From NCBI GenBank assembly GCA_964518805.1, contig CAZFKF010000001.1:1-26863 (forward strand): a DNA stretch of 26,863 bases, in the 5' to 3' direction. Position numbers and translations under genes: made by a program. A model generated the notes under the pieces. That model did no database searches. It saw only the letters and a program-made list of their open reading frames with translations, and was not told where the DNA came from. This document shows positions 1 through 22,773 of this stretch, in pieces; position 1 is the first letter of the stretch; every line of letters begins with the position of its first letter. Origin of the DNA: an uncultured Planctomycetaceae bacterium. Lineage in GTDB: Bacteria; Planctomycetota; Planctomycetia; Pirellulales; Thermoguttaceae.

Positions 1-515
1 GAAAACGCCAGCCGGACGTACATGCCGCTCGAATAGTGCTTGACGGGGGTATCGAGAAATTCGTCGATCTCCGCGAAGGCGACGATCTCATCAAAGCGGC
101 GTCGGACGTAGGCCCGGCTCATCCCCAGAAACGCGGCGTTGAGAAAGACGTTCTCTCGCCCGGTCAGGTCAGGATGGAACCCCGTGCCGACCTCGAGAAG
201 CGAGCCGACGCGGCCGAAGATGTCGGCACGGCCGGAGGTAGGCTCGGTGATCCGGGAAAGGAGTTTCAGCAAGGTGCTCTTGCCCGCGCCGTTGCGCCCG
301 ATGATGCCGACCACCTCGCCCCGCTTAATCTCGAAGGACACGTCCTTGAGGGCCCAGAACTCGGCCGGCGGCTCTTCGCCGCTGCCGAGCATGCCGCTGC
401 CGCAGCCGCCCATGGGTTTGCGCGTCAGGCCGATCCACTGGAGCAGCCTGCTTTGCGGCTCGTAGCGTTCGTAACGCTTGCTGAGCTTGTCCGCTCGGAT
501 AGCGATGTCGCCCAT
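1..515 (-). CDS. wzt: Polysaccharide/O-antigen ABC exporter ATP-binding subunit (Wzt/RfbB family), partial; runs off the left edge
   Basis: Not in the ORF track because no stop falls in the window. Manual translation from ATG at 515 gives [15 protein letters not shown]...[44 protein letters not shown]...[15 protein letters not shown]...[17 protein letters not shown]: Walker A (GRNGAGKST) and the YSSGM signature typical of Wzt. Starts 9 nt after the permease stop. Confidence 0.93.
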
Positions 516-524
516 CGATCGCAC

Positions 525-1457
525 CTACAAGTAGTCCGGCAGCGTCCGTTCGACACGGCGGAAGAGATACAAGGCCAACACCAGCAGGGCCGCGCTGAGG
601 GGACCGGACAAAGCAAACACCTCCCAACCGAAGTCAGCGGTCCCAAGCAGCGACCAGCGAAACCCGTCCAGTACGCCTGCCACGGGATTCAGACTGTAGA
701 CCGTTCGCAGTCGCTGGGGGATCATGGCCGCCGTCTCGTAGATCACGGGGCTGGCGAAGAAGCCAACCTGCAACAGGACCGGCACCGTGAAACGGATGTC
801 GCGCCACCGAACACTTAAGGCGGCCATCCACAATCCAATCGCTAGCGCCACGAGGGCAGCCAGGGCGACAAAGAGGGGTAGGAGCAGCGAGGCAAGGCCA
901 GGGACGATGCGATAGTAGGCCAATACCGCCGCCAAGACCACCAGCGCCACCTCCCAATCCACCAGCCCAACGATAACGGTCGCCAGGGGAAACGCCAGCC
1001 GCGGGCAGTAGACTTTGGTGATCAGGTGGACGTTGTTGGGCAAGCTGTTGGCCGTCGAGGTCAGCACCGAGGAGAAGAAGTTCCACACGACGATGCCGCA
1101 CAGCAAGCTGACCACGTAAGGCACGCCCGACGCCGTCGGCGAGTGCCCCAGGAGACCGAAGAAGACCACGAAGACGGCGAGACTGAACAACGGCTGCAAG
1201 AGCGACCACGCGATGCCCAGCAGGCTCTGGCGATAGCGGCTCTTCAAGTCGCGCGCTGCCAGCAGCCATACCAGCTCGCGAAACCGCCACAGTTCGCTCA
1301 GGTCGACGAGTTTGAGGCCCGACTCCCGTTCGATTACTGTATGGAGCGGCGTCGACGAGGAGCCGCTGTCCGGCCGACCCGGCCATTCATTGGCTTCGCC
1401 CGGTGCTGTCTCGTTGAACGTCACCCGATGGACTATGCTTGCCACGTCGAACCTCAC
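525..1457 (-). CDS. wzm: ABC-2 type polysaccharide exporter permease (Wzm/RfbA family)
   Basis: LWRFRELVWLLAARDLKSRYRQSLLGIAWSLLQP, KVYCPRL and FFASPVIY...LNPVAGVLDGFR motifs, about six hydrophobic segments, directly upstream of Wzt. Exact start uncertain. Confidence 0.92.
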   Translation of the reverse strand: MRFDVASIVHRVTFNETAPGEANEWPGRPDSGSSSTPLHTVIERESGLKLVDLSELWRFRELVWLLAARDLKSRYRQSLLGIAWSLLQPLFSLAVFVVFFGLLGHSPTASGVPYVVSLLCGIVVWNFFSSVLTSTANSLPNNVHLITKVYCPRLAFPLATVIVGLVDWEVALVVLAAVLAYYRIVPGLASLLLPLFVALAALVALAIGLWMAALSVRWRDIRFTVPVLLQVGFFASPVIYETAAMIPQRLRTVYSLNPVAGVLDGFRWSLLGTADFGWEVFALSGPLSAALLVLALYLFRRVERTLPDYL

Positions 1458-1508
1458 TCGTGCTCTTGCGTCGGCAAGTCAATATAGCCCCCGTGTGTTG
1501 CACGCAGA

Positions 1509-1523
1509 TTAGCGCGAGGTTAA
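1509..1523 (-). promoter_or_regulatory. Candidate 11-bp-period tandem site (TTAA-N7-CTAA) upstream of wzm
   Basis: Minus strand TTAAcctcgcgCTAA, about 50-65 bp upstream of the wzm start; same geometry as the triple repeat at 7291-7316. Confidence 0.25.
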
Positions 1524-1588
1524 TTCTGCGTCATCGGGCGCCGTTTGAGTCGGCCGACGTCCCTTGGGGATGAAGCAAGTTCCGCCGG

Positions 1589-3841
1589 CTACTTGCGCAG
1601 CCAGAGGTAGCGGAGAAGCCCGTGCAGACGGATGCCGCCGCCCAGGGCGAGGATGCGCTGCACCGGGCGCTGCGGATACGCCTGCTGGTATGCGTCCAGC
1701 TCGGTCTTGACCTCCTGAAACAAGTCCTCGAAGACCGGCTGAACTGCCTCGTAGAGGGCGGCGGAATTGGCGGCGCTGGCGGGGTTTCGCTTCCATTGCT
1801 CGGCTTTGGCGAAGGGGATGCGGAACTGGCGAACCAGGGCCTTGCTGGCCCGATCGACACCCATGCTCGCCGTGCGGAACCACAGCCAGTCCCGACCGCT
1901 GACGATGAAGTTGGTCGAATCGGCCCCGATGTCGAGGATGGCCACCGGCGCGTCGGAGGAGGGCGTTTCGGGGTGGGCTTCCGCGTCTGGCGACCCGAAG
2001 GCGTAGGACACGAAGTTGTGCAGGGCCAGGCAGTCGTGCTGGACGATGTCGATCCGTAGCCCCATGTTGTGCATCGCCGCCAGCCAGGTCTTGAGCAGAA
2101 GGCGATTGACCCCAAATAGCCCCACTTGGATCTTGCCCGGCGGATCCGCGAGGGCCGCGCTTTCGTCGAGAATGGCGGACCGCCATTCGAGATCCGCCAG
2201 CGCCATCGGGAACGCGCCGATGCCGGCGTACTGGAGGGCGGCGTCGAACTTGTCGGGGGTCAGCGGCGGCATTTCGACGGGGCGGACCCAAACGCTCCGC
2301 GGCGGCAGGCTGAGGCAGACCCGGTCCGCCGTGCAATCGTTCTTGGCGAAGAACATGCCCACCGACGCCTCGATCAGCGAGCGTTGTTGGGTCTCGCTGG
2401 CGGCCTGGCTGAGGATCTTGTCGTGTTCGACGACGTCGCAGGCGGCCAGGACGACCGGTTCGGCGGGATCGTCGCCGCGCGTGAGTTTGACCGCCTTGAG
2501 ACCGCTGGAGCCTAGATCGATTCCCCAGGCTGACCGTGCCCGCCGCTTCGACAGCCATCGCACGGCCTTCTGCCACAGCTTGCCGTCGTCGGGCAGCAAG
2601 TTGATCTCGATGGCCGCCTCTCCAAGTCCCTGGAGGGCCGCGCCGCAGGCCACGGCGAATCGCCCTGGATTCTGCAACAGCGGGGCGGGATCGAGGGCCG
2701 GATCGAGTTCAATCTGCCCCAGGCCAGTGGCCCACTCCACGGGGAGCCCGATCGCCGCGTGCTCAGGCAGCGTCTTCCATCCCGGTCCGATCTGATCGAG
2801 ATTGCGAGGATGGTCGCGAAAGCGTTTCTCCAACTTCGTGCACAGCAATGCCAGTTCGTCGTCCTGAGGCGCCATCTGGCGCGCCTTGGCCGCCAGTTCG
2901 ACAAGGCACTCGTCGATCAGCGGAGCGCTGCTGAGATCCCAACGAAGGTGGAGCATTTCCCATGCTCGATCGCGGATCGCCCGCAACTCGTCGGTCTGAA
3001 GCGACTCGGGGATTTGGCTCAGGATCTTCTTGACTTCGCTATAGCGGCACTTGGCCAGCCGGAGCTGAGCGACTTCCACCAGGCGGGCCGAAATCCGGGC
3101 CCCGAGCCGCGCTGCCTCGGCGTGATCGGGTTGCAGGGTCAGCAGCCGTCCTACCTTGGCCAACGCCTCAGGCGTCAGAGCCGCTTGCCCCAACGTGTCC
3201 AGTTCCACGCTCAACTGCCCAATGTCCCGGAGCGAGGATCGGCATTCCTCGATCAGGCGGGCGGACTCCTCGGTGCGAACCGCCGGCGGCACGGCTTCGA
3301 GCACCACCAACGCCTGTTGGAAGTCGCGACGAAGCATCAGGTCGCGGGCTTTCTTTTCCGCCGCGATGGTCTTCTCCTGCCAAGCCCGACTCTGGGAGAC
3401 GCACTGCGGAATACGCTGAGCGGCGCGCTCCGCGAAATCGCGCAACCGGGAATCCTGGAGGGCGGCGATGGTCCGCAACAGGGCTAGCGCCTTGTCGAAG
3501 TGTCCCTCTCTCTCCAATTGGGTCGCCCTGTCGAGTTCCCCGTCAAGCTGCGCTAGTTGCTCCTGGAGCCAGTCAAGAAGGTTGGCTCCGCAGGCCCCGC
3601 AGAACTTCTCCGTGGCCGCGTTCGACGTACCGCATTGATAGCACGGCTCCCAAAGCCCGTGGCCGCAGTCGTGACAGAAGCGGTTTGTGGGTGGGTTGAG
3701 CGCGCGACAGGCCGCGCAGCGAATGCGGTCACCGCGCGCAGGAGGCGCAGCAGAAGCGCCCCCGGCAACTGGATTCTCTCGACCGTCCGATGGCGGCGCG
3801 CTGTGGCCCGATGCCGGTTTGGTCGAACGGTGAACGGCCAT
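1589..3841 (-). CDS. pilM: Double zinc ribbon / alpha-helical / PilM-like (actin-fold) fusion protein, ~750 aa
   Basis: N-terminal CAAC...CHDC...CYQC...CGAC (four CxxC). C-terminal PilM/FtsA-like motifs: AWGIDLGSSGLKAVKL, VAILDIGADSTNFIV, KALVRQFRIPFAKAEQWK, ILALGGGIRLHGL. ATG at 3841 preferred because AGGGA lies just upstream and it avoids overlap with the stop at 3852. Confidence 0.82.
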   Translation of the reverse strand: MAVHRSTKPASGHSAPPSDGRENPVAGGASAAPPARGDRIRCAACRALNPPTNRFCHDCGHGLWEPCYQCGTSNAATEKFCGACGANLLDWLQEQLAQLDGELDRATQLEREGHFDKALALLRTIAALQDSRLRDFAERAAQRIPQCVSQSRAWQEKTIAAEKKARDLMLRRDFQQALVVLEAVPPAVRTEESARLIEECRSSLRDIGQLSVELDTLGQAALTPEALAKVGRLLTLQPDHAEAARLGARISARLVEVAQLRLAKCRYSEVKKILSQIPESLQTDELRAIRDRAWEMLHLRWDLSSAPLIDECLVELAAKARQMAPQDDELALLCTKLEKRFRDHPRNLDQIGPGWKTLPEHAAIGLPVEWATGLGQIELDPALDPAPLLQNPGRFAVACGAALQGLGEAAIEINLLPDDGKLWQKAVRWLSKRRARSAWGIDLGSSGLKAVKLTRGDDPAEPVVLAACDVVEHDKILSQAASETQQRSLIEASVGMFFAKNDCTADRVCLSLPPRSVWVRPVEMPPLTPDKFDAALQYAGIGAFPMALADLEWRSAILDESAALADPPGKIQVGLFGVNRLLLKTWLAAMHNMGLRIDIVQHDCLALHNFVSYAFGSPDAEAHPETPSSDAPVAILDIGADSTNFIVSGRDWLWFRTASMGVDRASKALVRQFRIPFAKAEQWKRNPASAANSAALYEAVQPVFEDLFQEVKTELDAYQQAYPQRPVQRILALGGGIRLHGLLRYLWLRK

Positions 3842-3851
3842 CGATTCCCTG

Positions 3852-6026
3852 CTATGGAAGCCCATCAGCAACGGGCTCCGCCCTGGCTTGCGCCTTCATC
3901 CTCGGGCCGGCTTGCAGCGACGGAACGGTGACGACCAGAACCTCAACCGTGATCTCCTGGCGCTTGTCCGGCGGTGTCTCCGACTTCGCGTTGGCCCTCG
4001 TCAGGAGCACGTCCACCGAGCGGCATTGGCCATCCTCATCGTTCGAGACAAGGCCCTCCAGCCACACCCCGTCGGAAATGGAGTGGGTCTGGGCCGGCTT
4101 GTCCATTCGCTGCTTGAACACTCGCAGGTAATGGCCCAGCACGGCTCGCGGAAAGCCCATTTCCTCAATCCGGACGTACGAGACATCGACGGGCTCGCAC
4201 CCTGCCCCTCCGTCCTTGGCCGCTTGGACTCCAGGCCAGCGGACGCGATGGGACGCCACCACCGACGCCTCCGGGTGGAGCGTGATTCCCGCCAACGGCA
4301 CCGCGTTCTCCGCATCCTTGGCGCGGTCTGATGCACGACGATCGCGGGCCTTTTCGAGACCCGCGATCAGCAGCCGTCGGCAATACTCCCTCACCACGGC
4401 CTCTTCCGCTGCGAGCCACGCCTTCCGCGCCTTCTCGGACTTCCCTTTCTCCGTCTTTCGAGCTTCCGCCTCGCTCTTCGATGGATCGCCCCGCTTCGCC
4501 GAAGAACGAACCGAAGCTGCGGCGCGTTTCGCTTCCTCGCTATCAGCGTTCGGACGGGTGTCCCGCACGCTTTTGAGCACGGGCAGGATTCCGGGCTCGC
4601 CAAAAAACGATTTCGTCCAGCCGGCAGAGACCAGCGCGTCGGGACTCTCTTCCCAATGTCGCGCGAAGGTACGCGCGAGTCGCAACCGGGCCTCGGTCCT
4701 GGGGATCGTGGCGGCAAGCAGCACTGTGGTCGGGCTCTGGCCGAGGGTGTCCATCGCCACTTGCCGCTCATTCAAGAGCGCCGCGACGCCCCTATCCCAT
4801 AGAACGCGGACGGCGCGAGCAACCCATTCGCCATTCGTCTCGGCACCGAGCGCGGCCGTACGCATGCGATCATCCCCCAATCCGAACACCTGGATCACGG
4901 CTTTATGGCTGCACTCCAGGAGTTGTCTCTCGATGCGCGTCTCGACCTCCGGAGCCATGCGTGCGCTTCGGAACAACAGCGATTGGGCTTCGAGGTTTTC
5001 CGGACGGTTCCGTTCCAGCAACGGAATCGCGAGATTGCGCAAGTCCGCGGCGCATGCCGGTTCCGCTATCTCCTTGGCGAGACGTTGCCGGATCCCGCTT
5101 CCTCCGCTTTGATCGATGACTCCGAGGGCCAGTCTCTGGAGGTCTGCAGGCGTTATCCGGCCTTGGCCGAAAGCGCGAACAACCCCGGGTTGGGTCAACG
5201 CCGCAAGCAGCACACTGTTGTTCTCGTCGGAAGGCGTCTCGGCCATGGCCTTCAACGTCGCCTGCAGCAGGGCTTCATCGTCTTCCAGACGCAAGGTGCC
5301 GGCCAAGATGTCGGCAATCAGTTGCCGGCCCGCCGACGTGCGGTTCGCCGCCAGCGTCTTCGCGATGAGAGCCAAGGCTTGCGGCGGAAGAGGCGGGGTT
5401 GCCAAGGGTGGTTTCGTGGCGGCTGCCGAGTCCTTGGCGTCGGTCGATGGTTTCGGCGCCAACAAGTTCCTCAGAAAGACCGCCTGTGGCTCCTCGTTCG
5501 GAAAACGCTCGGCCCGATACTCCAATGCGGCCAGCAACCGAGGGTCGTTTCCGGATCGAGCGGCGAAGAAGTCAGCGTCCTTCCAGGCGGCGAGATCTTT
5601 GGGAAGAGGTGCGGTTTGCGGCATCTTGGCTTCCGCAACGGACGGAGGCGTCGTTGCGGTGGGGCCCGGCGTAGGGTTGCCAGGACTTGCCGCCACCTTG
5701 GGTGGTTCGGCAGCGTTCTGTGCTTTCTTCGCTTCTTCTGCCGCCCGTTTGGCCTCGTCGTTCTTTCTCTTCTCAGCCTCCGCGTCCCGCCTGCGCTCCT
5801 CCTCTTTCTTGGCTTCTGACTCCCGACGGTCCTTATGTTGCTTGAGCCACTCCTCTTTGGACATTCCCCCCCAGGCAGCGAACGGGTCCGCCTTGCGCTT
5901 CCCATAGCCGCGCATCAGCACCGATCCCGCCACGGCAATCAACACGACAACAGCGACCGCACCCACGATCTTCCAAGGGATTTCGCGAGCCTTCCTGCCT
6001 CGGATCGTCTTCCCACGCGCTGCCAT
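3852..6026 (-). CDS. Hypothetical bitopic membrane protein (N-terminal TM, Lys/Glu-rich coiled coil, Pro-rich linker, helical domain), ~724 aa
   Basis: Long ORF; basic N-terminus followed by IVGAVAVVVLIAVAGSVLM; ESEAKKEEERRRDAEAEKRK charged stretch; its ATG (6026-6024) overlaps the TGA of the upstream gene (TGATG). Confidence 0.8.
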   Translation of the reverse strand: MAARGKTIRGRKAREIPWKIVGAVAVVVLIAVAGSVLMRGYGKRKADPFAAWGGMSKEEWLKQHKDRRESEAKKEEERRRDAEAEKRKNDEAKRAAEEAKKAQNAAEPPKVAASPGNPTPGPTATTPPSVAEAKMPQTAPLPKDLAAWKDADFFAARSGNDPRLLAALEYRAERFPNEEPQAVFLRNLLAPKPSTDAKDSAAATKPPLATPPLPPQALALIAKTLAANRTSAGRQLIADILAGTLRLEDDEALLQATLKAMAETPSDENNSVLLAALTQPGVVRAFGQGRITPADLQRLALGVIDQSGGSGIRQRLAKEIAEPACAADLRNLAIPLLERNRPENLEAQSLLFRSARMAPEVETRIERQLLECSHKAVIQVFGLGDDRMRTAALGAETNGEWVARAVRVLWDRGVAALLNERQVAMDTLGQSPTTVLLAATIPRTEARLRLARTFARHWEESPDALVSAGWTKSFFGEPGILPVLKSVRDTRPNADSEEAKRAAASVRSSAKRGDPSKSEAEARKTEKGKSEKARKAWLAAEEAVVREYCRRLLIAGLEKARDRRASDRAKDAENAVPLAGITLHPEASVVASHRVRWPGVQAAKDGGAGCEPVDVSYVRIEEMGFPRAVLGHYLRVFKQRMDKPAQTHSISDGVWLEGLVSNDEDGQCRSVDVLLTRANAKSETPPDKRQEITVEVLVVTVPSLQAGPRMKAQARAEPVADGLP

Positions 6027-7210
6027 CAATGGCTCCTTGAGCTGCCGAAAACTGCCAGTTGCACGTTCAGCCGCAGGCGCGGGACGCGCGGATGATCGGT
6101 CACGATCACGATCTCCCCGTGGTTGCTCGCCAAGAAGTTGCAGGGCGGCGCGTCAGAAGGAACCTCCACGGCGATTCGATAGACCCCGGCCTTGGCTGGA
6201 TCAACCACCAATGGGACCACGCGGACGCGAAGGAACTCGGGCCGGGTCTCGATCCGTTGGACCGCAATCCGCCGCGGCTCGCCGCGAACGATGAGTGTCA
6301 AGTGCTCTTGGATCGTCTCCCCCTGCTGCAAAACACCCAGCTTCAGCGCGTCGAACTCGATCTTCTCTCCCGAGATCTCCAGGAAACCAGGCACCTGCCC
6401 GCAAAGCTTGATTTGGCAGCTCTGGCGCGGCGCTGCCCCGTCGCGAGGGTCCACCTCAATGCGTAGGGACTCCGAGAAAGGGCCGCCGGTGGGCATATCG
6501 TCTGGCAACGTTATCTTGAGCCGATAGCCGGCAAGCGCGGCGTGCCGCTTGAGCCATTCCTTGTCCGCGGGCTCGACGCTGCACGCCACCTTCGCCCGGC
6601 TGGATTCGGTCTTGGCGACGACGAATCGCGGCCACTGTTGGGAGTAGACAAACGCTTCCGCCGTCTCCTTCGCCCCTGGCAAGACACTGCCGAAATACAA
6701 CTCATCCGGCTCGACGCCCAACAGAACCCGGACCGATCCCATGATTCGCAGCTTCAACTCGCGTTGGTCGGGATCGTTCGTGCGAATCGAGGCCGTCTGA
6801 TGGAAGGGCCCCTCCTTTTCCGTTGGTTTCAAGCGCAAAGTGATCCGTCCTTCTTCGCCGGGCATGATTGAGCGGTCGCTCAGGCCGCTCATGGTGCACT
6901 TGCAGGTGGTGGGCCCCTGCTCCAGTTCCAGCGGCGCGGTTCCCTGGTTGCGAACCACGAACACGTGTTCGACCTCGGCCAGCGGGGCCATGACGCCGAA
7001 ATTGTGTTCCGTCTTGTCGATGACCAGCCTCGGCCGGCCTTGGGGAATGGCGGGCGGCGGATCGGCGATTTGGACATTCTCTTTGACCTGCTCTACAGGC
7101 CGCGTCTCAGCGATCCGGGCCTGCAACGAATCCCACGCCTGAAGGCAAACCCCCGCGCCGCATAGCGTCGCCATGCTCAGGATGAGCACAATCCAGAACA
7201 ACCGCTTCAT
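6026..7210 (-). CDS. DUF1573 domain-containing (Ig-like) exported protein, ~394 aa
   Basis: Signal/anchor MKRLFWIVLILSMATLCGAGVCL; DUF1573 pattern IDKTEHNFGVM...HVFVVRNQGTAPLEL...TCKCT...IMPGEEGRI...IRTNDP. AAGGAG lies 5 nt before the ATG at 7210. Confidence 0.85.
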   Translation of the reverse strand: MKRLFWIVLILSMATLCGAGVCLQAWDSLQARIAETRPVEQVKENVQIADPPPAIPQGRPRLVIDKTEHNFGVMAPLAEVEHVFVVRNQGTAPLELEQGPTTCKCTMSGLSDRSIMPGEEGRITLRLKPTEKEGPFHQTASIRTNDPDQRELKLRIMGSVRVLLGVEPDELYFGSVLPGAKETAEAFVYSQQWPRFVVAKTESSRAKVACSVEPADKEWLKRHAALAGYRLKITLPDDMPTGGPFSESLRIEVDPRDGAAPRQSCQIKLCGQVPGFLEISGEKIEFDALKLGVLQQGETIQEHLTLIVRGEPRRIAVQRIETRPEFLRVRVVPLVVDPAKAGVYRIAVEVPSDAPPCNFLASNHGEIVIVTDHPRVPRLRLNVQLAVFGSSRSH

Positions 7211-7290
7211 CGACACTCCTTCCCACGCAGCGCATCGAGAAAGGGCACCAACGTACCCTGTCGTTAACGGCCCATCTTAAGGTTCACGCG

Positions 7291-7316
7291 TTAGTCGATC
7301 TTTAGGCCAACATTAG
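7291..7316 (-). promoter_or_regulatory. Triple direct repeat CTAA-N7-CTAA-N7-CTAA upstream of the DUF1573 gene
   Basis: Plus-strand TTAG at 7291, 7302 and 7313 (exact 11 bp period) in an AT-enriched intergenic gap about 80-105 bp upstream of the start. Confidence 0.4.
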
Positions 7317-7385
7317 AACTCGGTGAAGAACGCCCCGACGATCGAGTCCCACCCAAGCCTCGAGGAGCGGCCTGGATCTCGCCCC

Positions 7386-8804: not shown

Positions 8805-8866
8805 GCAACCTCCGATGAACCACGACGGATTCGGGCACCGTGACTCCATCGAATAGGCGAGCCATG

Positions 8867-8887
8867 AGGCGAACTCCCTCTCCGCCT
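8867..8887 (-). other. Intergenic stem-loop with GAGGGAG loop after pilin A
   Basis: Minus strand AGGCGGA-GAGGGAG-TTCGCCT: 7 bp stem including one G-U pair, 25 nt after the pilin A stop. Confidence 0.35.
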
Positions 8888-8912
8888 GCAAGAATCCCAC
8901 TCGACGATCATG

Positions 8913-10079: not shown

Positions 10080-10191
10080 GGCCGAATCCTCCTGACGAAG
10101 GGAACTATCCGGGCAATGCGGAGGAAGACTTTCACATCGGTCTTCATCCTAAGACTCTCCTGTCAGCCAAGTGTTAGAGATTCGACAAAAA

Positions 10192-11973: not shown

Positions 11974-12045
11974 GACGGGTTCTTGGAAGTATGGACGACA
12001 CGTGCACGAAGCGTACCCGCAAATCTGACCTGCAATTGACGAACG

Positions 12046-15000
12046 TCAACGTCTCGACGCACCGGCGTGGACACTTGTCTGTCGGCGAAGCAACTCCAAG
12101 TCGTTGGCCGCCTGCTCTTGGAGTGGATGGCCGATTGCTCGGTAGACCTGCCATCGCAGCACAAGGAGTTCTTCGTTCCAGGGAATATACGGCTCGTAGG
12201 CCAGAAGCGATTCGCTCACCGCCTCGCGCCCGACGTGCCGGGCAACCTCCAGGGCGGTCGATCGCCGGGTTTCTTCGTAGACCCAGACCGCAAGAGGTTC
12301 CCTCAACGCTCGGTACAGGCGGGGCGCCTGCTCGCGATCGGCCTCGACCACTCTTGAAACCGCTGGGAACGCGAGTTCCAACGCGTGGGCCAACCCCCAG
12401 GGGCTGGACCGCAACCGCGTGAGGACGCGGTGGAGCAGGTCCGCCGATTCTCGGTACTTGCCCTGTTTCGATGCCAGATAGGCGTCGATGGCGTCCGCCT
12501 CGGTCGGCCGGAAGGCCCGCAGCCGACGCGTCAATTCGCGTGCCTTGTCGCTGCCGAGGTTCGCGTAGCCGAGAGCAAGCAGCGCCGTCTCCGAGGGAAA
12601 CAGCGGCTCGTAGGCAGCCCTTTCCCATGTTTCCACCATTCCCTTCGTGTCGGCCTGCCAGTAGAGTTTCATCGCCTCGGCCCGAGCCTTGTGCTCCGCC
12701 GTGGGCTGGGATGGCAAGACGATCTTCCCCGCCAGCGCGTCGAGGATCTGGCGATGTCCCTCGACACGGTCCCAGTTGACCTCACTCTCCCCATCCAACG
12801 GCGGTCGATGCGCGCCGCACGCGACGGCCTCTTGACGCAGGTCTTGGATCGAGAAACCCGTCGACATTCCCACGCTTCGCGCAAACCCGTACTCGATGCG
12901 GTTGCGGTCATCGGTGTTGACCCACCCGGCCTCCTCGCCGGCAACCTCGTCCGCCAACGCTGATCCGGCTACGAATCGCGACAGCAGGCCCTCCAGGTCG
13001 GCGACGCGCCACCCACAGGCCACCGCGGTTCGAAAAGGATCCTGGGCGATCCTGTCGCGCAGACGTGCCGCGCGATAGCTCAACGGCCGGCGCGAGCACA
13101 CCAACAACATGTCGTCGTTCTTCGACTGCCAAACCTCGACGTATCCGAACACCGAACGGAGCGTCGCCAGGACAGCCCGCACCGTCTGCTCGTCGATCTC
13201 GTAGCCTTGCACCCATTGTACAAACAGTCCCTCCGGCTCAAGGCGAGCGAGCGAGGCTTCGTAGAATTCGCGAGTGAAGAGGCTGGCGACACCTGCCCGA
13301 TAGGGGTTCGACGGCTCTGAGGCAATGATGTCGTAGCGATCGGATGCCGTGAGCAGCACCTCGCGGGCGTCGTTGTAGATCCGCCGGACCTTCGGGTGGT
13401 GGAGGACATCGAAGTTGACCGCGGCGCAGCGGCGGGCCATCTCGTCGACGGCGGGTTCCAGTTCGACCACATCGACCCGCTCGATTCCCGGAACCTCGGC
13501 CAGCCATCCGGGAGTCTCGCCCGTGCCCAACCCGACTATCAAGCCCGTCCTGGGATTCGCGTGCAGCAGGGCTGGAAGCACGCCCAACATGATCTGCGTA
13601 CCAGCGTCGCCGATCGCATCGCCATCGCTCTTTCCGTTGACGAAGAAGGACAACCCGTTGGCAGCAACGAGAGCCACGCTGGCCTCAACGCCCTCCGCCT
13701 CCCACAGCACCTGGCGTCGTCTGGAGTTCACCCAATCGCGCAGCGTATTGGCGTCTCCGGCAGGCAGCGCGAAGCGGCCCGCCCCGATCCCGCTGTGGCG
13801 CTAGACGGCCGTAGGGCCGGTTGCCCCCAAGAGCAGAACGGACACGACTCCAGACGCAAGACAGAGCAGCGGTCCCAGTATCGAGTCCTTCGTCTTCAGA
13901 TGCCCGAGGCTCCCGGGAGTTGGGGCGTGTCCGGCGCGAGTCCCTCTCTCCCGCTTCGCATGAGCGACAGGAGCGGCGGAGACTCCTCCCCGGTTCAACG
14001 GCCGTTGACCTCGGACAACGATCAGAATCGCCGCCGCACTCAACAGCGCCAGCAGGCCCACCACGACCCGCCATGCTCCCAGCGCCGTGAGCAACGGCAA
14101 CAGGCCGAACCCGCCCGCCAGACTGCCGAAGATCGCTCCGGCGGTATTCCAGGCGGCGGTGAGCCCGACCTCCCGGCCAACCTCTTCGTTGCCTCGGCCG
14201 CAGAGCGCAATCAACAGCGGAAACTGGACGCCAGCCACCAAGGCCGCGGGGAAGACCGTGATCGCGGCGATCAGCGTCCAGCCTGCCGCGCGATCAGCGA
14301 AACCGGCGCTAGCCTGTTGTAGCACGGCCGCGTAGATCGCCAATCGATCGCCCAAGGCGTAAGGGACGGCAATGCCCACCGCCTCCAGGCCGCACGTCAT
14401 CGCCAACGCGTTCAGATTTGGGGACAAGCGACGGAATAGAAACGGATAGATCGCCCCGCCGACGCCGATCCCGGCAAGCGCTACGGCCAAAATCAGCCCG
14501 AACGTGTAGGTTGTGCCGCCCAGGATCGGACCGAGCATCCGGTACCAGACCAGTTCCATGACGAAGAACCCGAACCCGACGCCGCATGCTGTGGCGTAGA
14601 CGAACCAGAGCGGCGTCTGCACCAGAGCCCCGGGGGAGGACGCCCGCCGCCTCGCCCTATCTTGGCCGAGTGGTACCGGCGCCGCAGCGCCCAGGGGACG
14701 GCGTTCCGACCGCTTTATCTCAAGAATCCCCGCCCCGGCCGATTCCCGCACCCCACACGAGCTTACCCAGGCGACGGCGCCGACGATCATCCCCGTCAGG
14801 CACGCCATCCATAAGGTCAGGCGTCCGCTCAAGTGCGGGAGCAGCAGGAATGTGCTCACCGTTGCGCCAACGACGGCTCCCAGCGTATTCAATCCATAGA
14901 GCCGTGCGACGTCCCGGCGCGGACCGTCGTCGCACGCAGTGACTGCCTTGGCAGCCGCGGGAAGCGTGCCTCCCATCAAGAACGTCGGCAACGCGATCGC

Positions 15001-15396
15001 TGCGGCACACAGTGCCAAGCGCACCAGCGTCGCCCCCGCGGCCCCCAGCGCCGACTGTCCGCCCATCGCCATGTACGCCACCCGGCTCAGGTCGATCAGC
15101 CAAGGGCTCGCCGCGGCAGCCAGTGCAATTCCTGTTTCCAGAACGGCATACATCCTGACCGCATTGGGAGTTCGATCGGCCCTTCGCCCCAGAACCGCGC
15201 TGCCAACTCCCAACCCGCCCATGAAGACGGCCATCACCGCGGCGGAGGCCGCGGTCGACGACCCGAAGACCAATCGGAACTCGCGGAACCAGCTGGCCTG
15301 GAGCACCAACGCGGCCATGCCCGAGAAGAACACCAACGCGGCCATGAGCCAAATCGGGGCGCTCGCCGGCATGGGCGACCATCGGCCGCCCGGCAT
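12046..15396 (-). pseudogene. Fused multi-pass membrane / spermidine-synthase-like SAM-binding protein interrupted by an in-frame TAG at 13801-13803
   Basis: ORFs 13801-15435 and 12046-13731 share a frame and read continuously as ...GATGPTAV*RHSGIGAGR...; the N-half has two hydrophobic repeats (WFREFRLVFGSST, WYRMLGPILGGTTY); the C-half has IVGLGTGET, DVVELEP and YDIIASEPSNP. Start probably 15396 (AAAGGAAG upstream) or 15435. Confidence 0.8.
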
Positions 15397-15451
15397 TACG
15401 TCTTCCTTTGCGTCGTTTGCTGTCTTCACGATCATAGCTCGGGCGCTGTCC

Positions 15452-16966
15452 TCAATGGCGGCGATCGCTGCGAGACTGAAGTTCTCTCTCTGCGGTCGTC
15501 AGGTTGTGGTGGGCCGCCCCGTAACTCGGATCGATCTCGATGGCCCGCTTGAAGCACGCAATTCCTTCCTGTTGACGCCCCGCTCGGCAGAGAAATGTCC
15601 CGTAGTTGTTGTGCCCTCGTGCATTGGCCGGGGCCTTTTCGACCACGTCGCGCCAGAGCGTCAGGTCGCTCTGGTAGACCCGGTTGCGCAGGTACGTCGT
15701 GTACCCTAAGGCGCTAACCATCGCGGCCACCATGAGCACCACGGCGGCATTTCGGCCGGCGGAGCAGCGGCTGGACTTCACGGCGGAAGGCAGGCAAGGC
15801 GTCTGCCGGCAACTTCGTCTGCGCGACCGTCCCGCGCGAAGGCCCCCACAGAAGACCTCATAGGCGACGAGCACCGCCAGTGTCACGACGGCTGCGAGGG
15901 GGAGATACATCCGATGTTCGACAGCCGGATCTCGGATGGGCACGACACTCGATGTCGGAGCCAGGATCAGGAAGAACGCCCCTCCGAGAAATGACCATCC
16001 GCGATGGCGCCGTGTGGCCCAAAGGGTCGCAGCCAACAACCCTGCGACGACAATCGCTGAAGGAACGATTTCCCAAAGCGACCGGGCAAGGGGCCACCCG
16101 TAATCAAGGCACTGCCCTTGAGGCCACACGCAAAGCCGCAAGTAGCGCAAGATGACGCCGGGCTGCGTCAACGCATAGTCCAGCGGCGAGATTCCGTCCA
16201 CCGCCAGGGCGCCTCCGCCCACGTAGATCTGCCTGCGCATCAACAACGATGCGGCCAGCAGCGCCGGAACTCCGGCCAGCAGGGCGTAATACGAACCTCG
16301 TCTTCTTAGCACCTCGCTCCAGGTCGACGCCACGAAGGCTCGATCGTACCACAGGACGACCAAAGGGCCAACGGCGGCCACCTCCTTGCACCCCAGTGCC
16401 AACAGGGAGGAAATGACCGAGCTAGAATACCAAAGCACCGGACGGGGGGACGCCTGCGCGCGAGTAAAACCGTAGAGCGTCAACAGGAAGAACAACCCCA
16501 TCAGCGATTCATAGCGCTGATAGATGTACGTCACCGCCTCGGTCTGGAGGGGATGCGCCACCCAAACCAGCGCAACCACCAGCGCGAGACGATCGGCCAC
16601 GGGGCCGTACCGCGGGGCCAATCGCCCCTGCGACAGCGATCGACGGACAACTCCCAATAACACCAGCGCGCTCGCCACATGGATGGAGAGATTCGTCTCG
16701 TGATATCCCCGCACGCCGCTGCCGTGAAGGGCATAGTCGATCGCGAACGTGTAAGCCGCCACCGGCCGGGTCGAGGTGGCCAGACCTTTCCACGGCGGCC
16801 ACAAGGCGTGGTTCGCCGCGCCTCCCTGGATGCGTTGCAGATCGTCGAACTGGAAGGGGACTTCAAACGAATTCGAGTACGACAGTTCGGCCACAACGAC
16901 AATCGCCAAAACACCGAGCAATCGCAACCAAGGGCGCCATCGCTCTGTGCACACCTCGCACGCCAC
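15452..16966 (-). CDS. TMTC-like GT-C membrane glycosyltransferase with a short TPR tail (paralog 2), 504 aa
   Basis: YSNSF...FDD, STRPVAAYTFAIDY, VWVAHPLQTEAVTYIYQRYESL, GCKE, VEHRMYLP, RNRVYQSDLTLWRDVV; one TPR plus a capping helix. Confidence 0.88.
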   Translation of the reverse strand: MACEVCTERWRPWLRLLGVLAIVVVAELSYSNSFEVPFQFDDLQRIQGGAANHALWPPWKGLATSTRPVAAYTFAIDYALHGSGVRGYHETNLSIHVASALVLLGVVRRSLSQGRLAPRYGPVADRLALVVALVWVAHPLQTEAVTYIYQRYESLMGLFFLLTLYGFTRAQASPRPVLWYSSSVISSLLALGCKEVAAVGPLVVLWYDRAFVASTWSEVLRRRGSYYALLAGVPALLAASLLMRRQIYVGGGALAVDGISPLDYALTQPGVILRYLRLCVWPQGQCLDYGWPLARSLWEIVPSAIVVAGLLAATLWATRRHRGWSFLGGAFFLILAPTSSVVPIRDPAVEHRMYLPLAAVVTLAVLVAYEVFCGGLRAGRSRRRSCRQTPCLPSAVKSSRCSAGRNAAVVLMVAAMVSALGYTTYLRNRVYQSDLTLWRDVVEKAPANARGHNNYGTFLCRAGRQQEGIACFKRAIEIDPSYGAAHHNLTTAERELQSRSDRRH

Positions 16967-17011
16967 TTGTTCTCACCGCGCCCTTCACGAGTGCCGGGCG
17001 ATCCCTCGCCC

Positions 17012-17057
17012 GACAAAGCAAATCACAGGCGGGAGAGCCCGCTGGCCCTCCCGCCTG
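17012..17057 (-). terminator. Probable intrinsic terminator or mRNA-stabilising hairpin after pilin B
   Basis: Perfect 10 bp inverted repeat CAGGCGGGAG (17026-35) / CTCCCGCCTG (17048-57), followed on the minus strand by TGATTTGCTTTGTC. Confidence 0.6.
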
Positions 17058-17128
17058 CTTCAAGCCTTTACTGCTGCAATATCCGGACTACCGCGGATCG
17101 CTCGACCGCGAGATCGTCCTTTCGGACT

Positions 17129-18406
17129 TCATTCGTAGTTGACCAGCTTCTTCTGCCAGACGTTCTTGTAGAACATTCCGCTGAAGACCTGAGTGCGCGG
17201 CAAGTCCTCTTCGGGGCCGGTGAAGCCAACGCGGCTGGCGAGCGTCCCCGTCGTCGCATTGACCACGTACTGCACCGCGCCAGCGCCCGTGACCGGGAAG
17301 CCGGGGTTCAGCAGGCCGTCGCCGTTGGCGTCGCCGAACTGCTGGACCGAGCCGTCAGCCATCAGGATGTTGCACGACCCGTTGTGGTAGCACATCCAGT
17401 CGCGGGTGTCCTGGAGGCAGAGGCTGCCGTAGTTCGCACTCTGGGCTTCCTCGAAAACCTGCCCGGAATAGCTCGTCGTACCGGCGGTGTTGAGGTTCGC
17501 AACGACGCCGACGGTTGCATTGTTCGGGCTGACGGTATCGATCCCCGAGGCGCCGCCCCAGGTGGCCGGACCGTCGTTGAATGACTCGACCAACCGATCG
17601 CCAGCGCCGAGGAAAGGCTTGCCCTTGTAGGTGAGGGCCGCAAGCAGGACCGCCTCGTTCGGGTCGCCTGGGGTGCCGTCGCCCAGCAGCGGGATCATGT
17701 TGCTGGGGATGGACGACTTGTCGATGTCCGACCGGCGAATCGGGCCATCGCCGCAGTCCTTGGCCTTGTAATTGGTGTAGGCAACTCCCTGCCGCCCCAT
17801 CGATTCGGTGTGGATCTCATAGCCCGTGATCTTGCCGTTCGCAGCCTGTACGACGTTCGTGACCACGGTCCTCGGCTGCCCGCGGACGAAGAAGTTGCTC
17901 GCCACGTAGTTGGACGAGTAGCCCTTGTCGATGATGTACTTGCTGACCGCGTCGGCCGTAGCCGTCCCGCTCGCGTTAACTCCGATCATGTCCGTCTGCG
18001 AGCACGCCCCGGCCGCTTGATCCTTGACGTCGGCGACTTCGGCACCGGTGACCGAGCTGCCGCCCAACAGGTCGTTGAGCTTCTCCATCCCCTTGGCCGG
18101 GTTGGAGGGGCAGAGCATGTCGACCGGACGGCAATAGCCAGAATTCACCAGGTCGGCAACCCAGCCGTAGCTGTCGACGCAGCCGTCGCGGCGGTTGTCG
18201 TAGGCGCCGGTGCAATAGCGGGTGTAGGGGTCGTGATCCGCGTGGATCATAAACCCGATGCCGAACTGGCGCAGATTGCTCTGGCACTGGGCCGAACGGG
18301 CCGCTTCGCGGGCGCGGCTCAAGGCCGGCATCAACATGGCCACGAGGATGGCGATGATCACGATCACCACCAGCATCTCGACAAGAGTAAAACCTTTACG
18401 CTTCAT
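17129..18406 (-). CDS. DUF1559 family prepilin-like protein (pilin B, candidate major subunit), 425 aa
   Basis: MKRKG|[23 protein letters not shown]; [26 protein letters not shown]; GGAGA ribosome-binding site. The major-subunit role is inferred from the long leader and downstream hairpin. Confidence 0.94.
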
Positions 18407-18414
18407 TGTCTTTC

Positions 18415-18535
18415 TCCAGGTAAACGGAAACTGACGCTCATCCCTGCAACTCTACTTTGCTCACTCCAACTCACGCGACGTTCCGAGCGGCCACACCTCC
18501 TTTCCTCCTGCGATTGATTCCTTGTCTGACCTTCC
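18415..18535 (-). promoter_or_regulatory. GGA-rich 5' leader of pilin B; candidate CsrA/RsmA-binding array
   Basis: Nine GGA triplets counted in 121 nt on the coding strand, including ACAAGGAAT, GCAGGAGGA and CAGGGATG. Confidence 0.4.
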
Positions 18536-18753
18536 TTCTATTTCGCACCCCGCTGCCCCTGGCGAACACTTCGTCGTGTTGTCTCGTACTGAGATCCGCG
18601 GGCAATCGGTGCCCCACCGAACGGTGTCGCCGGCGAGAAAACTGGGTGTCACAGACTTGTGGACTAACCGCCGTGTTTTCAAATCCGTAACGCCGACTAT
18701 TATCCACGCCGATGTAAGCGCTTGATGCGTTGGCGATCAGAGTTCCGTCAGCT

Positions 18754-18777
18754 TTTCGAGATTTTGAGATTTCGCGA
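18754..18777. repeat. Three tandem imperfect 8-bp repeats
   Basis: TTTCGAGA TTTTGAGA TTTCGCGA on the plus strand. Confidence 0.55.
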
Positions 18778-18802
18778 GGGCGACTCGCATGGTGCGTTCG
18801 AA

Positions 18803-18819
18803 GGCATCGGTCGTTCCAC
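18803..18819 (-). promoter_or_regulatory. Possible sigma54 (-24/-12) promoter for pilin B
   Basis: Minus strand GTGGAACGACCGATGCC keeps GG-N10-GC, with mismatches to the TGGCACG-N4-TTGCW consensus. Confidence 0.25.
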
Positions 18820-19104
18820 ACGGATATCTTGCACGCATTCTCGCCGTGTCGGCTGGCAGACCGCGTGATTCCGTAGTGCGAGCGCGAGCCCTTGGGCGAT
18901 TCAACGGGCTGAAGTCCGCACCACAAACCTGCCGCCCGATGCAACCCCGCATCCGACCCCCGGCGCTGGCCATGCTCTACGCCGCCCGATCTTCATTTCC
19001 GTGGGGACGCCCCGGCGTTCCATTTCACGGGCTTGAAGTCTTCGATTATCGCGACGCGTGTTAAGAATTGATGGGCGGTCGGGCAGAATTCGGTCTTCTT
19101 GGCG

Positions 19105-19491
19105 CTAGAAATCGCCTTCCGGTGCGTTAGAAGCGGTGGGCATGGCAGACGAGGGGGAATGCGCCGCGCTGGGGCGCTCGAGATTCTTCGCGTATTTCAT
19201 GACTCGCGTACCATGGGCCAAGACGTGTCCGTTGGGCTCGATGACAACCTCGATTTGTCTCTCGCCGTCGATCCACATCCACCTGGCGTCCAGGGATGGA
19301 CCTGCGATACGACATTCTGTCGGATCCCCAAGCAACTCCACCAGATCCTCCCTCTTCATGTCGGAGCGGATCTTGTCGAAATTACGCTGAGTCACCTTGC
19401 TGGCGCCCTCCTCCTCCGGGGCGCAACCGCCGACCAACACGACCAGCATGGCGAGGCAACCGAGATACTGACGAAATCCAATGGAAACCAT
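19105..19491 (-). CDS. Small lipoprotein, SmpA/OmlA (BamE)-like or DUF3862-like, 128 aa
   Basis: Signal peptide ending in lipobox VGG|C; VTQRNFDKIRSDMKREDLVELLGDP resembles the 'I..GM...EV..LLG.P' motif. Confidence 0.7.
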   Translation of the reverse strand: MVSIGFRQYLGCLAMLVVLVGGCAPEEEGASKVTQRNFDKIRSDMKREDLVELLGDPTECRIAGPSLDARWMWIDGERQIEVVIEPNGHVLAHGTRVMKYAKNLERPSAAHSPSSAMPTASNAPEGDF

Positions 19492-19608
19492 GGGCAGACT
19501 TTCCTGGCGGAGGGAAACGGATTACGACCTTGGCGGAGACGGCTGTGCGAGAGGGCTCAGCGGCCCCTCCCCTTTCCACGCCTTGCTCTGCTTCACGGAT
19601 TCTCCGGC

Positions 19609-20769
19609 CTATGGATTCGGGATCGCTGGCGTGGGCGGTTTGGCTTTCAAATCCCAGCAACTGAAGAACTCGTCGGGCGGTAGCTCGACGATGTCGCTGG
19701 TGAAGCCGCCGTTGCCGCCGGGGAAACCGTTGTTCAGCAGCCCGTCCTTGTTGGTGTCGATCACGGTGCGCACGCCACCGTCGGCGAACAGCACATTGCA
19801 CCCCCCGCGATGCACCGGACCGAATTCCCGATAGTCTTGAAGCGTCTGGTTGTTCCAGATGGCCCACCAGCCGTCCGCGCCCGTGCGCGGCGTTCCCGCG
19901 GCCGGCGACGGCGCCACCAGGGTCGTCTTCAGCACCGGGCCTCGCGTCGTCGGTCGCACGGCGGGCGCATCTCGAAGCGACGCGATGTCCGCGTTCAACG
20001 AACCGCTCGGCGACCCGCACCCCATGAGCGGTACAAAACAACTGGACGACTTGGCAACGTCTGCCTGGGCCCGCGGCAACGGCCCCTGCGTACTGTGGAT
20101 CGACAACAACGAGGCTTCGCATCCCGCCTTGTCCGTCTTGAGTTGGCCCGAGTCGTTCAGCACCACAGCCGAACGGACCAGGAGCCAACTCGGCGTGTAA
20201 TTCGTATTGAAGTGCTTGTCGTAGATCAGTTTCTGCACGACGAAGACGCGTCCGGCACTGCCCGGTGCCATGTCCGCGATGGTGCGGCACGGGTTGGTGA
20301 TCGGGCTCCCGTCGGGCGCCGTCTCAGAGGGGCTGCCGCGGTAGTCGATGCAATCGCCGGGGGTCGGCGCTGGCACGGCGAAGTTCACCAGATCGTTGAA
20401 TGTCTCGCTGATCTGCGCGGGATTGGACGGGCACAGCATTTTTCCCAGGGCATAGCCTTGGGCGACCAAATCCGCCACCCAGCCTTTCTCGGTGACGCAA
20501 CCGTCGCGAACCCAGTCGAACGCCCCCGAGCACAACGTCCCGTGCGTTGTGGCGTGCGATGAAAGCCCGACGCCGATCTGCTTCAGGTTCATCTGGCACG
20601 CGCTGGAACGCGCAGTCTCCCGAGCGGAGTTGAGCGCCGGCATCAGGATCGCCGCCAGCAACGTCAAGATCGTGATGACGACCAGCACCTCGATCAGCGT
20701 CATCGCTCTCCGCACGGCAAGCCTCGCCGCGCCGGGAGCCCTCATGTCGATGCGATGCAATCCAACCAT
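19609..20769 (-). CDS. DUF1559 family prepilin-like protein (pilin C), 386 aa
   Basis: RRA|MTLIEVLVVITILTLLAAILMPA; ACQMNLKQ, LCPSNP, HRGGCNVLFADG; GAGGAG lies 6 nt before the ATG at 20769. Confidence 0.92.
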   Translation of the reverse strand: MVGLHRIDMRAPGAARLAVRRAMTLIEVLVVITILTLLAAILMPALNSARETARSSACQMNLKQIGVGLSSHATTHGTLCSGAFDWVRDGCVTEKGWVADLVAQGYALGKMLCPSNPAQISETFNDLVNFAVPAPTPGDCIDYRGSPSETAPDGSPITNPCRTIADMAPGSAGRVFVVQKLIYDKHFNTNYTPSWLLVRSAVVLNDSGQLKTDKAGCEASLLSIHSTQGPLPRAQADVAKSSSCFVPLMGCGSPSGSLNADIASLRDAPAVRPTTRGPVLKTTLVAPSPAAGTPRTGADGWWAIWNNQTLQDYREFGPVHRGGCNVLFADGGVRTVIDTNKDGLLNNGFPGGNGGFTSDIVELPPDEFFSCWDLKAKPPTPAIPNP

Positions 20770-22762: not shown

Positions 22763-22773
22763 GAGGTGAGACC

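Follow-up and report, generated by a model that had tools for sequence, protein, structure and literature searches.

We analysed a locus from an uncultured Planctomycetaceae bacterium (Thermoguttaceae; assembly GCA_964518805.1, contig CAZFKF010000001.1), taking as our window the whole stretch of 26,863 nucleotides. Positions 1–20769 hold genes for three prepilin-type DUF1559 proteins, a DUF1573 protein, a PilM-like protein with a double zinc ribbon (DZR), and two TMTC-like proteins that combine a GT-C glycosyltransferase domain with tetratricopeptide repeats (TPR). The conserved part is a four-gene cassette of two DUF1559 genes, DUF1573 and DZR-PilM that recurs in Planctomycetota and is apparently undescribed; it is a more robust result than the link to glycosylation. 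On balance, we favour a reading in which the locus represents this widespread cassette as enlarged in one lineage, with GT-C accessories that modify one of its parts. The original prediction had been a dedicated pathway that assembles and glycosylates pilins. Its pilin-like module survives and its GT-C link is plausible in one clade only, while the Wzm/Wzt exporter and the SpeE-like fusion drop out.

The cassette is defined by a forward synteny survey in which one genome per GTDB species was scanned with two motifs of the DUF1559 subfamily. The scan yielded at least 553 relatives; the 80 best loci were searched for every protein of the window and subjected to de novo clustering of open reading frames (ORFs). 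All carry Planctomycetota labels except one contig binned as Nitrosopumilus, and they include Pirellulales, Thermoguttaceae, Planctomycetaceae and the cultured Novipirellula, Rhodopirellula and Botrimarina. The recurrent co-directional order is C-type DUF1559, A/B-type DUF1559, DUF1573 and DZR-PilM, and in most related loci the C-type orthologue lies 5′ of the A/B-type gene. Of the 80 loci, 54 have DUF1573 and 49 the PilM-like gene; when the count is restricted to the 43 loci whose flanks extend at least 5 kb upstream and 6 kb downstream, the figures are 33 and 30, and 35 of these loci hold at least two genes of the DUF1559 subfamily. Because this order recurs in dozens of species, the core arrangement is beyond chance. 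The neighbourhood survey suggested with the original prediction hence bears out the linkage of DUF1559 to DUF1573 and a PilM-like protein across Planctomycetota; it does not bear out a general co-occurrence with TMTC-like, SpeE-like fusion or Wzm/Wzt genes. Our literature search found no account of the four-gene cassette: the papers on DUF1559 or DUF1573 do not concern this arrangement, and none relevant was found for H-X9-DG. DUF1559 is the largest paralogous family in planctomycetes and of unknown function, and a sharply defined subfamily whose members come in pairs beside DUF1573 and PilM-like genes across dozens of species, cultured strains included, offers a genetically testable entry point.

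ORF mapping and domain scans of 1–20769 confirm 13 co-oriented minus-strand genes with the domains, shared orientation and partly tight coupling described earlier. The features are as follows.

1–515 (−): Wzt-type ABC ATPase, partial, the gene being cut by the window edge; PF00005 (ABC_tran), best NCBIfam match Wzt/RfbE.
525–1457 (−): Wzm-type ABC-2 permease; PF01061 (ABC2_membrane).
1589–3871 (−): protein with double zinc ribbon, helical region and PilM-like actin fold, core gene; DZR E 1.4e-8, PilM_2 E 5.6e-15.
3852–6029 (−): 725-residue single-pass membrane protein, a frequent accessory adjoining PilM; no Pfam or NCBIfam match.
6026–7216 (−): DUF1573 Ig-like protein with N-terminal signal or anchor, core gene; PF07610 and PF22544.
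7386–8900 (−): PQQ_2/BamB-like beta-propeller with N-terminal anchor, accessory; PF13360 E 1.6e-29.
8913–10079 (−): DUF1559-A, prepilin-type H-X9-DG protein of the A/B-type lineage; PF07596, N_methyl, TIGR02532.
10192–11973 (−): TMTC-like 1, GT-C/TPR protein with the rare FDG variant; TPR matches, relationship to TMTC-like 2.
12046–13731 (−): SpeE-like half with class I S-adenosylmethionine (SAM) fold; PF01564 and NF037959.
13801–15435 (−): MFS-like membrane half, ending at an in-frame TAG; NF037959, ~11 hydrophobic segments.
15452–16966 (−): TMTC-like 2, GT-C protein with short C-terminal TPR and FDD motif; structural model, fold matches, family motifs.
17025–17058 (−): hairpin with U-rich tail, candidate terminator or attenuator; folding compared with shuffles.
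17129–18406 (−): DUF1559-B, prepilin-type H-X9-DG protein of the A/B-type lineage; PF07596, N_methyl, TIGR02532, TIGR04294.
18407–19104 (−): non-coding leader of ~700 nucleotides 5′ of DUF1559-B; no credible ORF, no Rfam match.
19105–19491 (−): 128-residue lipoprotein-like ORF, accessory; hydrophobic N-terminal segment then Cys, no family match.
19609–20769 (−): DUF1559-C, prepilin-type H-X9-DG protein of the C-type lineage, first gene of the conserved core; PF07596, N_methyl, TIGR02532.

The PilM-like and 725-residue genes overlap by 20 nucleotides and the 725-residue and DUF1573 genes by 4, and three more junctions have gaps of 9–16 nucleotides; PilM and Wzm are at least 131 nucleotides apart. 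The G+C content of the window is 61–67%, so many of its overlapping ORFs are spurious. One at 18471–18944 (157 residues) was discounted as non-coding together with further high-GC ORFs of this kind, as they are Arg-rich and free of family matches.

The three DUF1559 proteins are prepilin-type, as had been proposed. Each scores above the cut-off of TIGR02532, PF07963 also matches, and PF07596 scores 43.6–61.4 against a cut-off of 23.3. All three have a class III signal peptide with Glu at +5 (KG/FTLVEM in DUF1559-B, LG/FTLVEM in DUF1559-A, RA/MTLIEV in DUF1559-C). The AlphaFold2 model of DUF1559-B (predicted local distance difference test score, pLDDT, 88.8) has an N-terminal helix of 51 residues (8–58) followed by a beta-rich head. 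Pairwise identities are 33–41% (41% for A and B, 33% for A and C). The H-X9-DG model TIGR04294 scores 23.1 in DUF1559-B against a cut-off of 19, and H-X9-DG is visible in all three proteins. The subfamily is sharply defined by the motifs RDGC-x4-...-x9-DG, then D-x-N-x-DG-x-LNPGF, and a C-terminal (F/Y)E. With GspG, the major pseudopilin of type II secretion, the proteins share the class III signal peptide and N-terminal GspG matches; they differ in a head that is ~3 times larger and matches no solved structure, and in having no linked type II secretion genes. Their C-terminal Asp/Gly-rich motifs (H-X9-DG and D-x-N-x-DG-x-LNPGF) recall the calcium site of GspG.

The PilM-like protein has an actin-like domain (PF11104, PilM_2, 55.6 against a cut-off of 27) and no hydrophobic or transmembrane segment, and its relatives retain both DZR and PilM_2. 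It resembles PilM of type IVa pili, the cytoplasmic domain of GspL and Amuc_1101 of Akkermansia in the PilM_2 domain and in lying alongside prepilin-type genes; the Amuc_1101 family, pilus-linked and from a related bacterium, is its best NCBIfam match. It differs from them in an added N-terminal double zinc ribbon with ~350 helical residues and in the lack of pilN/O/P/Q on its 3′ side. No PilN/O/P/Q family was found in the cassette loci, and the curated PilM models score below cut-off in the window protein (TIGR01175, 60.4 against 133; NF045709 for Amuc_1101, 61.7 against 650). At residues ~404–428 (2590–2660, minus strand), ahead of the PilM domain, the stretch FAVACGAALQGLG...EINLLP resembles the C-terminal end of PilM joined to the N-terminal motif of PilN. 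We do not claim a tethered PilN peptide here: INLLP occurs in only 11 of 42 relatives, though A.GLALQG is at least 80% conserved. A transposon-sequencing study of Planctopirus limnophila places Plim_0072 (DUF1559) four genes from Plim_0076 (PilM, scored essential) and two essential hypothetical genes (PMC10632474); as a lead, this may be the same cassette. The 725-residue protein has one transmembrane segment (residues 21–39), and Pfam at E up to 10 returned nothing useful for it or for the 128-residue ORF.

The two TPR proteins of the window, TMTC-like 1 and TMTC-like 2 (47% identical), are, as judged from a structural model and family motifs, GT-C/TPR enzymes of TMTC-like architecture and not TMTC orthologues. 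Since sequence searches of the GT-C domain against the PDB gave TPR hits or nothing, a fold search was needed. The AlphaFold2 model of TMTC-like 2 (pLDDT 88.5; predicted template modelling score, pTM, 0.90) has a GT-C domain followed by C-terminal TPRs. Its top PDB folds are all GT-C (Pmt4, ArnT, AglB, AftB, Pmt1/2 and EmbB), with a probability of 1.00 but modest E-values (3e-3 and weaker) and TM-scores of ~0.4. TPR matches follow the last hydrophobic segment in the TMTC-like proteins, in agreement with the model. The family is large, with at least 4323 relatives. PMT_2 (PF13231) is matched by 14 of 52 relatives (best E 6e-10) and by neither window protein at E up to 10; DUF1736 (PF08409) has no match in the window at E up to 10 and is not among the 25 commonest of the 46 families matched by the 52 relatives. 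The first Asp of the FDD/FDG motif is at least 90% conserved in these relatives. TMTC-like 2 has FDD and TMTC-like 1 has FDG, DD being present in 97 of 118 family domains and FDG being rare. Model, fold matches and family motifs agree with the earlier assignment of both proteins as GT-C enzymes with TMTC-type motifs.

The FDG variant, with Gly for the second Asp, is found at residues 58–60 of TMTC-like 1 and in both copies of a related locus, L005 (6805–8931 and 14651–16519). The window pairs a DD with a DG paralogue, recalling heterodimeric PMTs. The eukaryotic O-mannosyltransferases TMTC1–4 likewise have an N-terminal multi-pass GT-C domain, non-cytoplasmic TPRs and a DD motif after TM1 (PMC7801869), and RP, HPLQTEAVTY (TMTC HPIHTEAV) and KE(T/V) can be matched by eye (PMC7801869). 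The window proteins differ in being bacterial and without DUF1736, in having only 2–4 TPRs in TMTC-like 2, and in acceptors that would not be cadherin domains; the bacterial TMTC-like members also number in the thousands and are mostly unlinked to pilin-like genes.

TMTC-like genes lie near the cassette in the window and in four of the six closest relatives examined (L005, L173, L174 and L176). The arrangements in the relatives are as follows.

L005 (L172), a 60-kb Logan contig: TMTC-like, small ORF, DUF1559, intact MFS/SpeE fusion, TMTC-like, DUF1559, DUF1573, propeller, DZR-PilM.
L005 (L172), flanks: upstream a GT2, a GT4 and a GT2+GT2_TM_C gene; downstream a radical-SAM gene.
L003 (L173), a metagenome-assembled Pirellulales genome: DZR-PilM, DUF1573, GT2 and GT2+GT2_TM_C on one arm.
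L003 (L173), divergent arm: TMTC-like, methyltransferase, DUF1559, a second TPR/GT-C-like gene and a PMT_2 protein.
L174 (PilM 70% identical): a convergent TMTC-like gene just after PilM, then Wzm (83%) and Wzt (87%).
L176 (PilM 70–84% identical): a convergent TMTC-like gene just after PilM.
L175 and L177 (PilM 55–60% identical): the core and the 725-residue protein only.
L170, the closest DUF1559-B relative (63–65%): C-type, B-type and MFS/SpeE fusion, with no GT-C gene between.

In a neighbour-joining tree of 118 GT-C domains, five cassette-linked copies and a solitary gene from L002 form one clade, within which TMTC-like 1 and its positional orthologue in L005 are mutual nearest neighbours. 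The 138 kb of the seven close-clade loci contain 8 or more GT-C genes, whereas the other 79 cassette loci have 2 in 1.26 Mb; the ~36-fold difference in density counts few independent events because the seven loci are related. A GT2+GT2_TM_C gene of the polyprenyl-phosphate-sugar-synthase type adjoins the GT-C gene in L172 and L173. Because the linked GT-Cs form a subclade of their own, because linkage is kept where orthologues have diverged to 48–60% identity, and because a GT2 gene is adjacent in two loci, a functional link between GT-C and cassette is the best reading.

The nearest precedent established by experiment is the TfpW system of Pseudomonas aeruginosa, which acts on the group IV pilin. 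TfpW, a GT-C protein of 11 transmembrane helices whose DDX motif and TPR domain are both periplasmic, is encoded immediately downstream of pilA; it glycosylates Ser/Thr of the pilin with D-arabinofuranose from a polyprenyl-phosphate donor (bioRxiv 10.1101/2020.04.19.049825). Pilin glycosylation of the TfpW type reportedly protects against pilus-specific phages (bioRxiv 10.1101/150227). The likeness lies in architecture and in adjacency to pilin-type genes in the window, L005, L173, L174 and L176, the activity here being predicted. The differences are subunits of ~400 residues (DUF1559/H-X9-DG) in place of PilA-type pilins, two GT-C paralogues in the window, one with FDG for DD, and no genes for D-arabinofuranose synthesis. 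Because of TfpW, a GT-C/TPR gene beside a pilin gene is not unprecedented, and the earlier statement that no experimental description of the combination was known holds only in part. What is new here is the DUF1559 subunits, their DUF1573 and DZR-PilM partners, the paired GT-C paralogues with an FDG variant, and the phylum.

A mechanism consistent with these data can be outlined, in which the cassette would be the minimal platform of a type IV filament or pseudopilus. Once processed by a prepilin peptidase encoded elsewhere, two pseudopilin-like DUF1559 proteins would build either a short pseudopilus-like structure akin to a type IV filament or a complex anchored in the membrane. The cytoplasmic PilM-like protein would serve as scaffold, the DUF1573 and 725-residue single-pass proteins would form the membrane or periplasmic part, and an ATPase and a platform would be supplied in trans. 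To this cassette the clade of the window has added GT-C/TPR glycosyltransferases of one subclade and a membrane-fused SpeE-like protein. With a polyprenyl-phosphate sugar as donor, the GT-Cs would most likely glycosylate some periplasmic component of the cassette; the analogy with TfpW and its pilin makes the DUF1559 head domain the leading candidate acceptor. Recruitment of GT-C/TPR genes in one clade, sometimes together with a polyprenyl-phosphate sugar synthase, thereby points to a specific candidate acceptor for bacterial TMTC-like enzymes.

A number of observations weigh against this reading, and several of them favour an alternative in which the GT-C and SpeE-like genes are passengers, inserted once in the ancestor of the clade and serving other envelope targets, with DUF1559 left unglycosylated. 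We performed a reverse test on 80 metagenomic loci anchored on the closest TMTC-like genes (38–51% identity). None of the 80 carries a DUF1559-subfamily, DUF1573, PilM-like, MFS/SpeE or Wzm gene, so the GT-C family as a whole is unlinked to pilin-like genes. Tandem TMTC-like paralogues occur in ~20 of these loci, and two individually inspected close homologues also sit in unrelated contexts. Conversely, only 2 of the 80 cassette loci of the forward survey have a TMTC-like match above 100 bits and ~75 have no TMTC-like gene, which together with the reverse test dismisses the idea that the locus reveals a general substrate for bacterial TMTC homologues. The position of the GT-C genes varies, being interleaved in the window and L005 and convergent after PilM in L174 and L176; the hairpin at 17025–17058 separates DUF1559-B from the gene for TMTC-like 2. 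The DUF1559 proteins, earlier called Ser/Thr-rich, contain 13.4–14.5% Ser+Thr, with 8 Ser/Thr in the richest 20-residue stretch, and by composition count DUF1559-A, -B and -C have no Ser/Thr-rich tracts; that description was overstated, since they are unlike mucin-like sequences or pilin glycosylation tracts. The five GT-C-bearing loci are related and may go back to as few as one to three independent events, a polyprenyl-phosphate sugar synthase gene is missing from the window, and the SpeE-like fusion there is interrupted. Set against the passenger explanation are the separate subclade of the cassette-linked GT-Cs, the persistence of linkage through divergence of the orthologues, the density of GT-C genes around the cassette in the clade of the window relative to elsewhere, and the donor-synthase-type GT2 in L172 and L173. 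We regard passengers as possible, if on the unlikely side.

Other observations bear on whether a filament is formed at all. A Foldseek search of the DUF1559-B model against the PDB returned nothing at E<0.3, although a small shared core may hide behind the long helix and large head. Since the head resembles no solved pilin, filament formation is something we infer, and this too counts against our reading, as does the lack of a prepilin peptidase, secretion ATPase, platform protein or secretin in the window and among the recurrent families of the 80 cassette loci. The DUF1559 pair could instead be binding proteins anchored in the membrane that, with DUF1573 and the PilM-like protein as partners, capture substrates or take part in signalling. 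In keeping with this, a relative is annotated 'DUF1559 family PulG-like putative transporter' in one public source, Pfam identifies the family as SBP_bac_10, the head is large (~350 residues), and neither an assembly ATPase nor a secretin is nearby. The 68 DUF1559 paralogues of Planctopirus limnophila, two of them reported essential (PMC10632474), also far exceed the needs of a filament. The class III signal peptide, the Glu at +5 and the long N-terminal helix are, by contrast, determinants of type IV filament subunits. To our knowledge, no PilM-family protein has been described outside type IV filament machines, a further point against a system that forms no filament, which we consider improbable.

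The Wzm and Wzt proteins of the window resemble glycan exporters in combining an ABC-2 permease with an ATPase, with Wzm/RfbD and Wzt/RfbE as best NCBIfam matches; they differ in scoring below the equivalog cut-offs and in genes that are not conserved with the cassette. Their proposed part in the system is not borne out by the surveys: Wzm/Wzt genes are found in 0 of the 80 cassette loci and not in the GT-C-interleaved loci L172 and L173. The one locus where they adjoin the cassette again is L174, the closest relative (83% identity for Wzm, 87% for Wzt); there they open a separate nucleotide-sugar cluster of O-antigen type, with NTP-transferase, epimerase/dehydratase, DegT aminotransferase and thiamine pyrophosphate (TPP) enzyme genes, that runs away from the cassette. 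The window pair belongs to a neighbouring glycan cluster of O-antigen type. Protein O-glycosylation that depends on Wzm/Wzt is found in other bacteria, for S-layer proteins, which lends something to the full 13-gene pathway, in which Wzm/Wzt would export a polymer, the GT-Cs would attach it to Ser/Thr-rich DUF1559 pilins and PilM would assemble an external filament. We judge that pathway very improbable, for all the co-oriented, partly overlapping genes and the recurrence of Wzm/Wzt in L174, given their absence from the other cassette loci, the direction of the L174 cluster, the gap between PilM and Wzm, the broken SpeE-like fusion, and the use by PMT/ArnT/TMTC-type GT-Cs of polyprenyl-phosphate monosaccharide donors, for which an ABC exporter is unneeded (PMC7801869).

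Our preferred reading of a cassette with modifying GT-C accessories would have its strongest form if Planctomycetota possess an undescribed type-IV-filament-like module and, in addition, a TMTC-like GT-C/TPR subclade of this sublineage O-glycosylates its subunits. That both hold jointly is unlikely. If true, DUF1559, the phylum's largest family of unknown function, would have a first defined machine, and bacterial TMTC-like enzymes would for the first time have a natural substrate assigned to them.

The membrane SAM-binding fusion of the original prediction has both of its domains and lacks a single intact frame. An in-frame TAG at 13801–13803 (minus strand) splits the MFS-like and SpeE-like ORFs. 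It falls at an invariant Trp within GPTA(V/A)-W-RH(S/A)GIGAGR, as defined by five intact homologues of 1060–1070 residues, to which both halves are 41–60% identical with no other defect. With a cut-off of 40 for NF037959, the membrane half scores 68.2 bits and the SpeE half 61.3 bits. The same TAG is present in L167 (Logan SRR6476075), separately assembled and 99.97% identical over 19.7 kb. Because the TAG replaces an invariant Trp, recurs in L167 and leaves the halves otherwise intact, it is a real and recent nonsense mutation, unless read through. In the SpeE-like half (residues ~60–150) the GxGxG SAM-fold motif is kept (VGLGTGE), and SEPSNP stands at the place of the catalytic motif. Spermidine synthases presumably have a catalytic D-S-x-D-P at this place, and the protein may not be an aminopropyltransferase.

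The hairpin at 17025–17058 is a perfect stem of 15 pairs, 11 of them G-C, located 71–104 nucleotides past the DUF1559-B stop codon. Its folding energy is −42 kcal/mol (z −4.5), and none of 200 shuffles was equally stable. It was the sole standout in scans of the window for sigma-70 promoters and terminators in general, which otherwise gave no more than shuffled controls, and an Rfam scan of the window found no match. The leader at 18407–19104 is partly kept in L009 (83% over 66 nucleotides, 68% over 276 nucleotides). Because of the hairpin and the ~700 nucleotides of non-coding DNA 5′ of DUF1559-B, a single 13-gene transcript is unlikely. Subunit genes that are strongly expressed and have a leader and an attenuator of their own typically show this pattern. 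Long gaps comparable to the DUF1559-B leader, of ~590–1000 nucleotides, are found in L005, L009 and L168.

The remaining accessories recur at lower frequency. Homologues of the 725-residue protein are present in 13 of the 80 cassette loci and in L174–L177, and the PQQ_2/BamB-like propeller in 10 and in L005. The MFS/SpeE fusion is found in 5 and lies directly 3′ of the A/B-type DUF1559 gene in four of these. Homologues of the 128-residue ORF occupy the same position in L005, L009 and L177.

Several loci of the survey show features of their own. L020 (CAXQOB010000024.1), binned as 'Nitrosopumilus sp.', bears a planctomycete DUF1559-DUF1573-PilM cassette, probably through an error of metagenome binning. 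Eight loci without DUF1573 and PilM (L038, L053, L057, L061, L062, L068, L074 and L078) have a protein of ~1100 residues encoded directly after the DUF1559 gene (for example L038 3443–6742), with N-terminal zinc ribbons, HEAT repeats, a membrane segment and WD40-like repeats; it may be an alternative partner. A lipoprotein family of ~704 residues follows the PilM-like gene in 20 loci, including L023, L033, L035 and L040 (for example L082 4705–6816), and has no pilin N terminus, although its sequence includes a generic DUF1559-like stretch (SWRVAILPLLG...EPWDS). Homology between this family and the 725-residue protein was rejected, as profile comparison aligned 33 N-terminal columns only, at 79% probability. 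In L174 (ENA ERZ21831019 ctg28782l) the DUF1573, TMTC-like, epimerase and TPP enzyme genes are split, which suggests indel errors of assembly and not real pseudogenes.

Divergent from the cassette, the plus strand of the window at 21332–26411 encodes two tandem paralogous SBP_bac_11 proteins followed by a zinc-ribbon membrane protein of 552 residues. The second SBP_bac_11 protein has an N-terminal J-domain-like segment, YHRWLGIPPEEQPPDHYRLLGL.

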